DNA from: an uncultured Planctomycetia bacterium
GTDB lineage: Bacteria > Omnitrophota > Gorgyraeia > Duberdicusellales > 4484-171
Assembly (NCBI GenBank): GCA_964420965.1
Contig: CAYQUQ010000006.1
Span: forward strand, 1-50,846
Reading direction: 5' to 3'
DNA: 50,846 nt
In this document: positions 46,949 through 50,846 of the stretch, in pieces
Numbering within the stretch: position 1 is the first letter of the stretch
How the letters are laid out: each line of letters begins with the position of its first letter
Notes under the pieces: generated by a model
Told to the model about the DNA's origin: nothing
What the model saw: only the letters and a program-made list of their open reading frames with translations
Databases searched by the model: none
Translations under genes and position numbers: made by a program

Positions 46949-47023
46949 ATCACTCCAATATTTTCAATCAAAAGGAAGTAAAGATATCTTTGGGGTATAC
47001 GGCAAAAAGAAGAGCCGGTGGGC

Positions 47024-47260
47024 TTAAAAGCGGATATTAACGACTATGGCTGCAAAAACAACCCCGATCAGAATTAACCCCATAATCCGGGTATTGCGTA
47101 TTTCTTTATCCCAGGATATCGGTGTTATGCGCCAATTTATTAACTTATAAAAATTTATCTGGATCTTTATGGCCGGCTTCGGCCGAAACAGTAAAAAAAG
47201 GCCGATGATTACGCTGCAAATATTAATAATCACGAATATGGCTAAAGGCATAAAAATCAT
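47024..47260 (-). CDS. Small two-TM hypothetical protein
   Basis: Two hydrophobic helices flanking INWRITP...NTRIMG. Confidence 0.65.
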   Translation of the reverse strand: MIFMPLAIFVIINICSVIIGLFLLFRPKPAIKIQINFYKLINWRITPISWDKEIRNTRIMGLILIGVVFAAIVVNIRF

Positions 47261-47305
47261 TTCTTTCGGAGTATCTTTATCGGCGGCAACCCTCCTGCGG
47301 CCGGG

Positions 47306-47758
47306 TTACTGCACCTGGCACTCATTCTGTTTATGAATCTTATCGAACCTTATCCGGGTTATGCGGTAATTATCGTATTCCTTGATAAAATTTACCCTTA
47401 CCAGCACCCGATCATGCTTCTCAAATTTAGCCTCGTAAACCAAAAGGGGGAAATCCGAGTCCAAAGAGCTTTTATGCCGGAGGAGTTTTTTTGAATCTAA
47501 ATATCCTAAGTTCTGCCAGCATTCAGCGGTGTAAAGAGTCTTAAAGTGTTGCTTGGCGGTTACCGGATCCATCTGTTGGGCAAAATACTCATAAAACTTA
47601 ACATAATCCTGAAAATTGTACCCTTTCAGAGCCGAATCAGCCAATAGTTCTAAAACCTCCAAAAGATATTTCTGTGAAGGTTGACTGGTGGCGTTATGGT
47701 CTAAAATCAGCATATTTAAAACAAACCCGATCATAAAAACTAAAAATATCTTTTTCAT
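47306..47758 (-). CDS. Hypothetical exported protein (DUF3887-like pattern)
   Basis: Start MKKIFLV after SD GGGAGG; YEAKFEK...VNF motif. Confidence 0.65.
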   Translation of the reverse strand: MKKIFLVFMIGFVLNMLILDHNATSQPSQKYLLEVLELLADSALKGYNFQDYVKFYEYFAQQMDPVTAKQHFKTLYTAECWQNLGYLDSKKLLRHKSSLDSDFPLLVYEAKFEKHDRVLVRVNFIKEYDNYRITRIRFDKIHKQNECQVQ

Positions 47759-47936
47759 GTCGAACAAACCTCCCGTTTCTACTGCTTCTTGTCCGGGCTT
47801 GCACTTGAGCGATTCCCCCGGACTGGCATTTATCATCTATAAAAATTTTAGCGCGTAATTGCACTTTTGCAAGAAAATAATCGCATTTACATTTTTTCAC
47901 CCCAATGATATTATAAATAGAAAAAGGAGTGAAGCC

Positions 47937-48362
47937 ATGCCTTCAAAATACAACTTAAGCCCGCAGAAAGAAAGACTTCTCATCAATGAAATGAAGCGAT
48001 TGAAAATAAAGGAGTCGGATATTCGGGAGCGGTTTGTACGCGCCCGGGGGCCGGGAGGGCAAAAAGTGAACAAAACCTCAAGCTGTGTATATTTAAAACA
48101 CCTGCCCAGCGGCATCGAAGTAAAATGCCAGCGGGAACGCTCGCAGGCGGCAAACCGCTTTATGGCCCGCTGCATCCTCCTTAAAAAAATCGAGAGGATG
48201 GCTGCGGATAAAAAGCTTAGAGACCGGCAAGGGCAAGAACGATTACGCCGCGCGAAGCGAAAACGCTCCCCGGCTGCAAAAGAGAAAATATTGCGTCAAA
48301 AACGGCTGCGTTCGGAAAAGAAACGCGGGCGGCTTAAGACTGCTGGGTTTGCTGAAGAATAA
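47937..48362 (+). CDS. Stand-alone GGQ peptidyl-tRNA hydrolase (ArfB/release-factor-like)
   Basis: RARGPGGQKVNK, HLPSGIEVKCQRERSQ, very basic C-terminal tail. Start ATG 47937 after AAGGAG. Confidence 0.9.
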   Translation: MPSKYNLSPQKERLLINEMKRLKIKESDIRERFVRARGPGGQKVNKTSSCVYLKHLPSGIEVKCQRERSQAANRFMARCILLKKIERMAADKKLRDRQGQERLRRAKRKRSPAAKEKILRQKRLRSEKKRGRLKTAGFAEE

Positions 48363-48400
48363 AAAAACCCCGTTAGAAATAATTTTCTAACGGGGTTTTT
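48363..48400. terminator. Bidirectional terminator formed by the ACCCCGTTAGAAA palindrome (copy 2)
   Basis: A-tract, ccccgttagaaa-taat-tttctaacgggg, T-tract, located between convergent genes. Confidence 0.8.
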
Positions 48401-48405
48401 ATCTT

Positions 48406-48780
48406 TTAACGGATCTGCGAGCGGACGTAACTCTTAAGATAAGTCATCAACTCGATGCCGAGCTCATCGCGAGTAAACCTTCTTACGTCATCCGCTACCT
48501 GATACATGGTAATTTCCGGTTTATCTTTCTGGACTTCCTGATAAGCAGCGATCATGAACTTAGCCACTTCGTCCCGGGAGTATCCGGGATGCTCGCTGCA
48601 TACCCGGATAACATACGGCTTGAATTCTTCGGGAAAATGTGCTCCCCGGTCAAAAACAGACAGCCGCTTCTCCGGGCTATACAAATCGTCGATAAACCTG
48701 TATCCCGAATCCGCATATCCCGGCAGTGATGCCCCCAGAAATAAACCCAACATACCGATCAAGGCTATTCTTTTGACCAT
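48406..48780 (-). CDS. Hypothetical exported protein
   Basis: Start MVKRIAL after SD AGGAGGTG; signal peptide ending GYA. Confidence 0.7.
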   Translation of the reverse strand: MVKRIALIGMLGLFLGASLPGYADSGYRFIDDLYSPEKRLSVFDRGAHFPEEFKPYVIRVCSEHPGYSRDEVAKFMIAAYQEVQKDKPEITMYQVADDVRRFTRDELGIELMTYLKSYVRSQIR

Positions 48781-48983
48781 ATTCCACCTCCTTTTAAGCA
48801 ACAACAAATATAATATACCATATAAACGCCCATTTTTTCAATGTCAATTCATAACCGATTGATAATAAGCAAGTTATGACTGGGAATTTTTCAAATTACC
48901 CTAATTACGGGGGTAAGAAGGCTGAAGAGGGGACGCGGAAGCCAGCTCACCAATAGGGAATCGCGACAATATGCCTCATTTTC

Positions 48984-49011
48984 TTGATGTATTGGGAATG
49001 TTTGGTATAAT
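48984..49011 (+). promoter_or_regulatory. Sigma70 promoter of tRNA-Ser
   Basis: TTGATG, 16 bp, TATAAT with extended TG. Confidence 0.65.
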
Positions 49012-49034
49012 ACTTACAAATCTTTTACCGGATC

Positions 49035-49070
49035 TAAGATCTCTCGGCCATCTTCGATGGCCTCGAGATC
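49035..49070. repeat. 36-bp hairpin element (copy 2)
   Basis: Reverse complement reads GATCTCGAG-GCCATC-GAA-GATGGC-CGAGAGATCTTA. Confidence 0.75.
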
Positions 49071-49094
49071 CGAAAAAATACTTCGTATTTTTTC

Positions 49095-49184
49095 GGAGGG
49101 GTGGCAGAGTCTGGCTGATTGCGGTGGTCTTGAAAACCATTGTGGGGAAACTCACCGGGGGTTCGAATCCTCTCCCCTCCGCCA
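49095..49184 (+). tRNA. tRNA-Ser(TGA)
   Basis: GGAGGGG...GTGGT-CTTGAAA-ACCAT, long variable arm, GGTTCGAATCC, CCCCTCC-G-CCA. Confidence 0.97.
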
Positions 49185-49334
49185 ATTATTTTTTTTTCGA
49201 TTTTTTTCGCTTTCTGCGACCAAAGAATAGGGATTTTGGCTGGAAAAATAAAGCAAGAACACGACCAATCTTTTTGTCTTTTTATTTTGAGTAATTAAAG
49301 CTCAAAATAAAATGACTGATTCGTAATTTGCCTC
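49179..49334. repeat. Left arm of 156-bp perfect inverted repeat
   Basis: Base-by-base reverse complement of 50642-50797; begins in the tRNA 3' end (CCGCCA). Confidence 0.93.
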
Positions 49335-50633
49335 CCAGCATAGGTAACTAGCGTGGTTTAAAGAAGTTACAAAGTCTTTAGCCCGTTCGAACCAATTATT
49401 ACCCTCAGCGGCAAAATCTCGTAGCTTCTCTTGCAAGCCCTTCTTTTTGTTGATAAGTCTTTCCTTTTTCGCCTGGTATTCCTCAAGGCTAATAACCCCT
49501 TCCAGATAAATATCTATAAGTTTACTTATTTTGGCGTCTATCTTGTATATTTCCTTTTGAAGATTTTGCCGCTGAGTAAGTGATGATTGGATAAAGCCTT
49601 GTTTATCGTTGTTTAACTCTCTTAAGATATTGTTTGTCCAATCATCGCTTAAAGAAACTTTTTGAATTGCCCGCTTCACTTGCTCGGCTAAGACTTCCTC
49701 GCGAATATACTTTTGTTTGCAAGGCCCAAGCCTTTTGGTGCAGCGGTAATAATTATGGCCTTTCTGGTTCTCAGCGGTTATCATTGCTCCGCACTCACCG
49801 CATTTAATAAAGCCTCGGAAGGTGAAATATTTAGGTTGTTTCTTGTGGGGTTTGCTTCGTTGCTTTAGGACCTCTTGACACTTGTCAAAAAGTTTCTTGG
49901 TAATAATTGGTTCATGGGTTCCTTCGTAAGTCTCGCTATTGAAGCGAATAAGGCCATAGTAGATCGGGTTCTTTAGTAGATACTGGTAATTGCCTATGGC
50001 TAAGGTTTTTCCTTTCTTGCCCGTAAGTCCACAATCGTTCATGGTCTCACGCAGCCGGGAAAGAGAGTATTCGCCTGTCGAGTAGAGCTCAAAAGTTTTC
50101 TTGATAAGATGAGCTCTGTCTTTATCAACCACTATTGTTCGGGTTGTGCGGTCGTTGAGGTAACCCATAGGCGCCCACTGCGGCCAGATGCCCTTGCGTA
50201 GCTTCAAGCGAATACCGCGCTTGATGTTTTCAGACAAAGCGTCAATGTAGTATTTGCTCTGGCCAAAGGCTATTGAAAGCATAAACTTGCCTTGGGCGTT
50301 GTTATCAAAGCGATAGGTGGGAAACTTTAGATCTTGGATGATACCTTTATCGATGAGGTAAATTATTCTACCACCATCAACACTATTTCTAGCTAAACGG
50401 TCAGGGTGCCATGCAAGAATAGCTTCAGCTTCACCCTTTTCAATGCTTACGATCATAGCGTTGAATATAGGTCGGCCAGGCTCTTTGGCAGTCTTAGCTT
50501 CCACTAACTCCTTAGAGATAAAAAGACCTTCTTTCTTGGCAAATTCGCGCAGTTCGGTTAGTTGAGCTTCGATAGATAGGACTTGCCTGTCTTCGTCATC
50601 GGTGGACTTACGGGCATATAGGAAGTATCTCAT
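49302..50633 (-). CDS. Large serine recombinase (resolvase, recombinase, zinc ribbon, coiled coil)
   Basis: MRYFLYARKST, DRLARN, APMGY, HEPII, CGECG...YYRC. Likely start ATG 50633. A single TGA precedes an in-frame tail. Confidence 0.95.
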   Translation of the reverse strand: MRYFLYARKSTDDEDRQVLSIEAQLTELREFAKKEGLFISKELVEAKTAKEPGRPIFNAMIVSIEKGEAEAILAWHPDRLARNSVDGGRIIYLIDKGIIQDLKFPTYRFDNNAQGKFMLSIAFGQSKYYIDALSENIKRGIRLKLRKGIWPQWAPMGYLNDRTTRTIVVDKDRAHLIKKTFELYSTGEYSLSRLRETMNDCGLTGKKGKTLAIGNYQYLLKNPIYYGLIRFNSETYEGTHEPIITKKLFDKCQEVLKQRSKPHKKQPKYFTFRGFIKCGECGAMITAENQKGHNYYRCTKRLGPCKQKYIREEVLAEQVKRAIQKVSLSDDWTNNILRELNNDKQGFIQSSLTQRQNLQKEIYKIDAKISKLIDIYLEGVISLEEYQAKKERLINKKKGLQEKLRDFAAEGNNWFERAKDFVTSLNHASYLCWEANYESVILF

Positions 50634-50641
50634 GCTTTGGT

Positions 50642-50797
50642 GAGGCAAATTACGAATCAGTCATTTTATTTTGAGCTTTAATTACTCAAAATAAAAAGAC
50701 AAAAAGATTGGTCGTGTTCTTGCTTTATTTTTCCAGCCAAAATCCCTATTCTTTGGTCGCAGAAAGCGAAAAAAATCGAAAAAAAAATAATTGGCGG
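50642..50797. repeat. Right arm of 156-bp perfect inverted repeat
   Basis: Matches 49179-49334; continues into an attP-like tail encoding WRSVLNKVRTYFQDR* (to 50839). Confidence 0.93.
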
Positions 50798-50846
50798 TCC
50801 GTATTAAACAAAGTTCGAACTTATTTTCAGGACCGCTAACTTAATC

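Follow-up and report, generated by a model that had tools for sequence, protein, structure and literature searches.

Why should the gene of a large serine recombinase (LSR) stand inside a long, perfect inverted repeat that begins within a tRNA gene, and can the repeat serve to turn the gene around? The question is raised by a window of 50,846 nucleotides (nt), the whole stretch of DNA analysed here, which is the entire contig G000:C6 (CAYQUQ010000006.1, assembly GCA_964420965.1) of an uncultured bacterium assigned to the Omnitrophota. Close to its right end lie a tRNA-Ser(UGA) gene and, antisense to it, a recombinase gene enclosed by the two arms of the repeat. The original prediction for this locus, made from the letters alone, took the arrangement for a candidate self-inverting ON/OFF switch. 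As argued below, the cassette is most probably the attL end of a tRNA-integrating serine integrase island, which keeps an inverted attP-like copy of its attachment site before the integrase gene.

A repeat search returned two arms of 156 nt that are 100% complementary (49179-49334 and 50642-50797, spacing 1307 nt), each the exact reverse complement of the other. The runner-up inverted repeat in 47000-50846 is merely 25 nt long at 80%, and a perfect 156-nt inverted repeat in 50.8 kb cannot be of chance origin, as combinatorics excludes it. The left arm starts with CCGCCA, the final 6 nt of the tRNA gene found on the plus strand at 49095-49184 (ARAGORN; Rfam tRNA, 49.4 bits), and holds the 3′ end of the recombinase gene, whereas the right arm begins 8 nt ahead of the ATG at 50633. 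The 1307-nt interior contains one long open reading frame, that of the recombinase on the minus strand (ATG 50633, stop 49302-49304). The flanks of the two arms are unlike beyond CCGCCA/TGGCGG, so that the repeat is not a plain fold-back. On all these points of layout the original prediction was accurate. An Rfam E-value scan of 48900-50846 gave nothing besides the tRNA; two matches with E-values of 0.3-0.8 were dismissed as chance because their scores were far below the gathering scores. The features on which the argument depends are given below.

48984..49011, plus strand: promoter-like site upstream of tRNA-Ser (TTGATG, 16 nt, TATAAT, with TG before the second hexamer; 10 of 12 matches, by consensus only)
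49095..49184, plus strand: intact tRNA-Ser(UGA), T-loop TTCGAA at 49162-49167, 11 nt before the core; putative host half-site (B)
49179..49184, plus strand: common core CCGCCA (end of the acceptor strand, discriminator G, and CCA)
49179..49334, plus strand: proximal arm of the inverted repeat, consisting of core and R; meets the tRNA in an attL-type junction; the last 10 recombinase codons and the stop fall inside it
49302..50633, minus strand: recombinase gene, 443 amino acids, catalytic Ser10
50642..50797, minus strand: distal arm of the inverted repeat, consisting of R and the core at 50792-50797, begins 8 nt ahead of the recombinase ATG; with the P arm next to it, makes up a putative inverted attP-like site
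50798..50846, minus strand: P arm, a putative mimic of the 3′ half of a tRNA, with TTCGAA at 50814-50819, 16 nt from the core, and a 7-bp closing stem; truncated by the contig end

The layout is shared by many relatives, which were collected from 40 related genomes, from a one-genome-per-species set (35 loci, titled as Candidatus Omnitrophota or, in a few cases, as other bins of the PVC group), and from contigs of metagenomes (80 loci). Altogether 121 loci were analysed, namely the window and 120 relatives. An inverted repeat between the two 500-nt flanks of the gene was found in 105 of the 121 loci, and a tRNA whose 3′ end faces the 3′ end of the gene in 93 of them; the 16 loci without the repeat are mostly cut by a contig end or belong to a remoter group of ~50% identity. 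The arms are 33-161 nt long across the listed loci, and 79-161 nt long with 88-100% identity among the 35 one-per-species loci. The same layout lies within contigs of 183,623, 190,713, and 133,936 nt, which were produced by different assemblers. On account of this conservation, an assembly artefact can for practical purposes be excluded. The recombinase family is widespread in the Omnitrophota; no relative was found among viral contigs, and hence no phage claim is made. Logan contigs of four of the 13 sequencing runs found, which are short and of low depth and unable to phase the 156-nt repeat or to tell its orientation, bridge the junction of R and the gene at 49334/49335 (X3 record 18 and X4 record 26) and cross 50641/50642 by 30 nt (X1 record 8 and X2 record 16); these runs may include the source sample and do not count as independent support. 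Two apparent joints in them that skip 49666-49885 and 50294-50398 were discarded, their sides being shorter than 30 nt.

The two junctions of the window differ in the half-site that meets the repeat. The left junction reads tRNA arm (B)-CCGCCA-R, and the right junction, on the minus strand, reads tRNA-mimic arm (P)-CCGCCA-R. The motif TTCGAA, for which one mismatch was permitted in the P arm, is separated from the core by 11 nt in the tRNA and by 16 nt in the P arm, so that the P motif lies 5 bp further out. In the LI integrase, the motif of the zinc-ribbon domain has been reported to lie 5 bp nearer the centre in attB than in attP (Rutherford et al. 2013, PMC3783163). Since the shift seen here agrees with this attP/attB rule, B can be assigned as the host half-site and P as the element half-site, and TTCGAA would be the motif read by the zinc-ribbon domain of the enzyme. 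An identical outer motif that is 5 bp nearer the centre in attB was found in the window and in the typed relatives: in a paired typing test that demanded an identical sequence after CCA on both sides, 74 loci were typed as P at the 5′ side of the gene and B at its 3′ side, with spacings of 16 and 11 nt in all 74. The P flank is kept in different hosts and whichever tRNA is the target (Ser with five anticodons, Asp, His, or Pro). The tRNA-R, P-R, and P-host junctions share no stretch other than CCGCCA, which would place the crossover within this 6-nt core; motif symmetry puts the crossover centre 2 nt apart between an unoccupied site and the P-core-R site.

The likeness of the P arm to a tRNA goes beyond the T-loop motif. 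Of 76 distinct P arms, 43 have a segment further upstream that can pair with at least 6 of the 7 nt preceding GCCA, compared to 9% in shuffled sequences, and the paired arms include 19 distinct stem sequences. The P arm of the window has a 7-bp stem by eye, which is set 2 nt closer to the 3′ end and stands outside this anchored count. From these stem counts, the P arm appears to be a mimic of an acceptor stem together with a T arm. RNAalifold gave no consensus structure for the 76 P arms, as their 5′ strands failed to align.

The far end of the island was sought in three relatives with long contigs. In G041 (G041:C2:142406), a P-core-host site lies in direct orientation 15 kb past the internal site, and in G043 (G043:C23:68097) such a site lies 5.6 kb past it, likewise in direct orientation, with P arms that are identical over at least 33 nt. 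A contig scan of G042 found no far P-core-host site; the unoccupied tRNA-Ser(GCU) of this genome reads tRNA-core-host DNA. Both attL and attR, in direct orientation and with a common core, are accordingly present in G041 and G043, and the window shows attL alone. The DNA between the sites carries a DNA methylase gene and a helix-turn-helix (HTH)-type gene, the latter recognized by sequence reading, in locus L035, and HTH_3 (XRE-type HTH), EcoRI-type methylase, and GmrSD genes in locus L045. A motif resembling a T-loop, followed by the core and the start of an R-like arm, was also seen 13 kb beyond the far end of the island in G041 (G041:C2:155808), and this junction is possibly the remnant of another island.

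Other contigs of the window's own genome carry related ends. Its bin comprises 1.56 Mb in 64 contigs, the ends of which overlap by 55-mers. A host-core-P end is found at G000:C54:8695-8752, and its last 55 nt are the last 55 nt of the window. Inverted P arms around a cargo would collapse in a k=55 graph, which would explain why the contig stops here and shares its 55-mer with C54. A second site of the attR kind, at G000:C42:2889-2930, is diverged (88%). At G000:C18:389-418, a lone 30-nt P arm directly abuts a short stretch resembling a tRNA end, the cassette being absent, and this junction is possibly a relic of cassette loss. There are two cassette copies in this genome, both at tRNA-Ser ends. 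The second island end, at tRNA-Ser(GCU) (G000:C55:7421-8257), has an R-like arm of 75 nt with 99% identity to the window arm, after which the two diverge; the 3′ part of its recombinase shows 91% protein identity to the window copy, and the contig end falls inside the gene.

The two occupied tRNA-Ser genes have further traits in common. Their leaders (window 49018-49094 and G000:C55:7380-7420) are alike, both with a hairpin CCGAAAA...TTTTCGG whose 3′ strand adjoins the start of the tRNA. In a loose test, CCA was found at or near the 3′ end of merely 12 of the 37 tRNA genes of G000, several of the 12 being doubtful. Both occupied genes have CCA, with R directly after it, and the element may be the source of their CCA.

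The 443-amino-acid product of the recombinase gene combines the Resolvase (PF00239, 1.1e-17), Recombinase (PF07508, 1e-15), and Zn_ribbon_recom (PF13408, 1.2e-11) domains and is thus an LSR. Residues Y6, R8, S10, Q17, D78, R79, and R82 are all present in the window copy and invariant in 114 relatives, of which two contain internal stops. Because these catalytic residues are conserved and present, an inactive enzyme is unlikely as far as can be judged from the protein sequence. The closest solved structures are the C-terminal domain of the A118 integrase (4kis, E 3.5e-5) and the catalytic domain of a conjugative-transposon recombinase. Both 4kis and 6dnw, also an A118 integrase C-terminal domain, align to residues 167-416, and the 4kis alignment, as an alignment only, covers the region expected for the zinc-ribbon coiled-coil motif. 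In the window, the last 33 nt of the recombinase gene lie in the proximal arm, whose outer end is in the tRNA. In the relatives L035 (6001-7533) and L045 (6001-7554), no stop interrupts the frame across the proximal arm, and it enters the antisense strand of the tRNA, with open-frame lengths of 510 and 517 amino acids, respectively, compared to 443 in the window. The same genome also has a distant LSR gene (G000:C1:99357-100805; 27-29% identity), which is convergent with a tRNA-Gln CUG and has element-like genes beyond it; no long inverted repeat was seen by eye around this gene.

One orientation of the cassette prevails. Both sides were typable in 77 of the 121 loci, the remaining 44 being cut by a contig end or failing the motif rule, and 74 of the 77 have the layout of the window, with the tRNA at the 3′ end of the gene and the P arm at its 5′ end. 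The other three are L116, which is flipped (tRNA at the 5′ side and P at the 3′ side), L043, which has tRNAs on both sides of the gene, and L110, which has P arms on both sides. Loci readable on one side fit the common layout except for L016 (P-type at 3′) and L061 (B-type in the 5′ flank). The two arms of L116 and of L043 differ at several positions of the outer 40 nt, seven of them in L116, and for this reason both look like exchanges between different elements or sites, not like flips of one cassette. The nearest relative of L116 is 86% identical, and the age of the flip is not datable from it. L043 and L110 have the forms expected of an internal attP that recombined with another tRNA site, and all three arrangements (two B sides in L043, two P sides in L110, and the reversed pair in L116) are the products expected if the internal site sometimes recombines; an excised circle, or the reciprocal product of a rearrangement, would likewise have the layout of L110. 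Exchange at the arms occurs in nature, with one orientation dominant. In L110 (2246-4334, on a 12-kb metagenome contig), the inverted repeat extends to 396 nt at 80% identity.

The two arms of an element resemble each other more than they resemble the arms of other elements. Arm identity has a median of 96% within an element and 75% between elements, and the best match of an arm was its own partner in 75 of 86 cases. In 13 loci that were inspected, the outer ~85 nt are usually identical between the arms, and a recurrent difference is found at the inner end, with GTTCGAAC in the 3′ arm and GTTCTTCAC in the 5′ arm. The two arms of the window are identical over their full length. One possibility is that the arms are kept alike through gene conversion from breaks at the core.

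A combination of the junctions, the far ends in relatives, and the C54 end suggests the following order for the complete island: tRNA-Ser(UGA)[B]-core CCGCCA-R-recombinase gene (antisense to the tRNA)-R′-core-P (inverted)-cargo-P-core-host, where the last junction would be the C54 end. The island would thus have three sites, namely attL (B-core-R), an internal inverted site of attP sequence (P-core-R, on the minus strand), and attR (P-core-host). As the internal P-core-R junction has the sequence of attP, the 156-nt inverted repeat is better understood as two copies of one part of a larger island's attachment site, namely its R arm. Integration through the copy next to the 3′ end of the gene would give the observed layout, and excision would join attL and attR into a circle in which two inverted attP copies flank the gene. 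As to the role of the spare copy, it may in the first place be an integrase-binding site that controls the adjacent gene, together with antisense RNA made by read-through from the tRNA in the integrated state. In the second place, it may remain active as an attP and now and then recombine with attL or with another tRNA site, thereby giving rare flipped or hybrid forms. The orientation of the gene is essentially fixed, and hence the cassette is not a free flip-flop.

Several observations weigh against the island model. The identity of the outer ~85 nt within an element is left unexplained by the model itself. The window ends 49 nt past the right arm, so that its cargo and attR are deduced from relatives and from C54, the attR-type end of which is tied to the window through the shared 55-mer only; no contig of the bin continues from this 55-mer, and the cargo of the window is not seen. 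No TTCGAA-like motif was found by eye at a constant distance inside R across elements, and R would have to be a true integrase half-site all the same. In the four Logan runs, no excised-circle joint or empty-site joint of this island was found, the parts that they leave uncovered being uninformative. Finally, two equivalent attP copies would predict both orientations, in conflict with the 74:1 bias, and this bias needs selection or an arm-specific inner motif as an extra assumption.

The gene also contains conserved long-range structure. The folding of the gene interior has a z of -3.6 relative to dinucleotide shuffles, and its long-range complementary segments are as follows.

49388..49914, strand not assigned: four-way junction in the coding sequence, formed by long-range complementary segments
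49388-49403/49899-49914: helix A
49404-49420/49560-49576: helix B
49582-49591/49637-49646: helix C
49652-49665/49885-49898: helix D
50018-50032/50602-50616, strand not assigned: helix E, 15 nt, perfect; the same pair is present in L075

In an alignment of 98 distinct relatives, the paired cells amount to 75% for helix A, 91% for B, 89% for C, and 98% for D, compared to ~36% for random placements; as the helix positions were taken from the fold of the window itself, the comparison with slid controls is biased towards the observed values. Helix B contains 226 cells in which both sides have changed. Helix E is weaker, being paired in 63% of cells against 36% at random, and a sixth helix, paired in 50%, is not conserved. 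GT cells (309) and AC cells (281) are equally rare among 5514 Watson-Crick cells. This lack of strand preference in pairing points to a DNA-level structure or to a function in both transcripts. A broader reading, which we regard as rather doubtful, would divide the island into two modules, each flanked by inverted copies of one half-site (an integrase cassette bounded by R arms and a cargo bounded by P arms), with the spare attP as a natural device for cassette exchange and re-docking; the helices and the tRNA-like leaders on either side could then form a DNA-level device (cruciform or single-strand) or a two-strand RNA device that reports integration. If it were true, the integrase could flip or move its own gene, swap cargo, or recombine with free tRNA ends elsewhere, reshuffling the chromosome.

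The self-inverting switch of the original prediction is, on balance, unlikely. It proposes that the recombinase flips its own cassette, being silent when antisense to the tRNA and read from the tRNA-Ser promoter once flipped. Some aspects of the locus suit this proposal. The recombinase lies within an inverted repeat whose outer ends are its own recombination cores, and the prediction was right that a flip would set the gene behind the tRNA-Ser promoter, since a promoter-like site does precede the tRNA (48984-49011) and L116 has just such a layout. No promoter-like site was found in R on the recombinase strand and no terminator between the tRNA and the gene, which is weak evidence, as the scan consists of consensus matching and the promoters of the host phylum may differ. 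L116 also retains the arm-specific inner motifs on the same ends of the gene, as would follow from an exchange near the core or in the outer arm. However, the predominance of a single orientation does not fit a working flip-flop: 74 of the 77 typable loci have the orientation of the window, with one flipped and two hybrid, and a repeat longer than the assembly word should assemble either way. The differences at seven outer positions between the arms of L116, and a nearest relative of 86% identity, do not suggest a simple recent flip. Moreover, serine integrases are reported to be limited to attP x attB, or to attL x attR with a directionality factor (PMC3783163), and the third, far site and the cargo are not needed by a switch.

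It is very improbable that the cassette is an autonomous minimal transposon, in which R-gene-R′ would form an insertion-sequence-like unit with 156-nt terminal inverted repeats that inserts at tRNA-like CCA ends independently of the cargo. The cassette is indeed bounded by inverted repeats with the same terminal 6 nt, and the C18 junction (389-418), where a P arm is joined to a tRNA-end-like stretch without a cassette, has a similar loose end as a counterpart in run X3. In the 74 typed loci, however, the cassette always lies between the tRNA and the P arm and was found nowhere else, and its two copies in the genome are both at tRNA-Ser, where a transposon would be expected at various unrelated targets. 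The conservation of the P arm in different hosts argues that it travels with the element. The junctions without a cassette share a 4-nt direct repeat, and a palindrome-stimulated deletion would fit them equally well.

An artefact at the contig end, by which an arm was copied during assembly or amplification or integrated and excised forms were joined into a chimera, is hardly credible. In its favour, only 49 nt separate the right arm from the end of the contig, the two arms match perfectly, and repeats were collapsed in the k=55 assembly graph. Against it, 105 of the 121 loci, which come from many assemblies, show this layout, frequently within long contigs and with arms of 88-99% identity, and Logan contigs from runs that may include the source sample bridge the R-to-gene junction and reach 30 nt past 50641/50642. 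The chimera had been offered in the original prediction as an alternative, and one part of it stands, as the right junction does have the attP sequence expected of the excised form; the imperfect arms in long contigs from different assemblers indicate that this sequence is real DNA inside the integrated island.

For a single integrase family, nature offers ~100 pairs of a host site and an element site, every one with the 5-bp shift that was deduced from one crystal structure, so that the attachment-site model can be tested by natural variation. The targeting of conserved tRNA 3′ ends is of interest for site-specific integration tools. The islands bear restriction and defence genes, and their repeats break Omnitrophota assemblies, so they matter when such genomes are read. 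A spare inverted site and a self-complementary gene are left unexplained by current accounts of serine integrases.

Among known systems, the analogy behind the switch idea is with Hin/hix, Gin/gix, and Cin, in which a serine recombinase gene lies in or beside a segment with inverted crossover sites. These are small invertases of ~190 amino acids with a C-terminal HTH, 26-bp sites, and an enhancer, and both orientations coexist. The enzyme described here is instead a 443-amino-acid LSR, the arms around its gene reach 161 nt, and 74 of the 77 typed loci have the same orientation. In Tn4451 and Tn5397, an LSR (TnpX or TndX) moves the element via a circle in which the joined ends form the site, with many targets and short end repeats; here, by contrast, the targets are tRNA ends, and a long inverted repeat encloses the gene, not the whole element. 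Engineered exchange of the MiMIC kind, used in flies, worms, and cell lines, places a cassette between two inverted attP sites, so that it can be exchanged or inserted in either orientation. The arrangement described here is natural, its inverted pair of attP sites would exist in the excised form only, and exchange would be hypothetical. No account of this layout was found among the papers searched on LSR tRNA islands, on Omnitrophota serine recombinases, or on inverted, second, or internal attP sites; for inverted or second attP, the matches listed are engineered exchange or landing-site constructs, save one paper whose listing concerns tandem integration of Salmonella SGI1.

The closest published parallel found is provided by the ssrA islands of Dehalococcoides with the serine integrase DsiB, which have an integration module of six genes and repeat the target end directly over 20 bp (McMurdie et al. 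2011, PMC3146451). They are alike in their position at the 3′ end of a tRNA-like gene and in having the integrase gene on the reverse strand beside attL, and the DsiB frame runs into the complementary strand of the RNA gene (PMC3146451), as do the frames of L035 and L045 here. They differ in that the direct repeat of ~20 bp at the far boundary has no counterpart here, where the far sites share a 6-nt core and a shifted motif, and in that an internal inverted site is present here, the term "inverted repeat" being absent from the main text of PMC3146451 (supplements not covered). With the phage-type integrases of A118/LI, phiC31, and Bxb1, the family shares the Resolvase, Recombinase, and zinc-ribbon domains and a short common core, and with the LI integrase it also shares a host-site motif that lies 5 bp nearer the core than its element-site counterpart (PMC3783163). 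Unlike in these systems, a second, inverted attP-like site is inside the integrated element, the gene is enclosed by an inverted repeat of 79-161 nt and threaded with conserved long-range complementary segments, the targets are tRNA gene 3′ ends, and the P arm mimics the 3′ half of a tRNA, with recombination predicted from sequence. Serine integrase islands at tRNA-type genes are thus known, and what appears to be new is a spare inverted attP-like site before the integrase gene.

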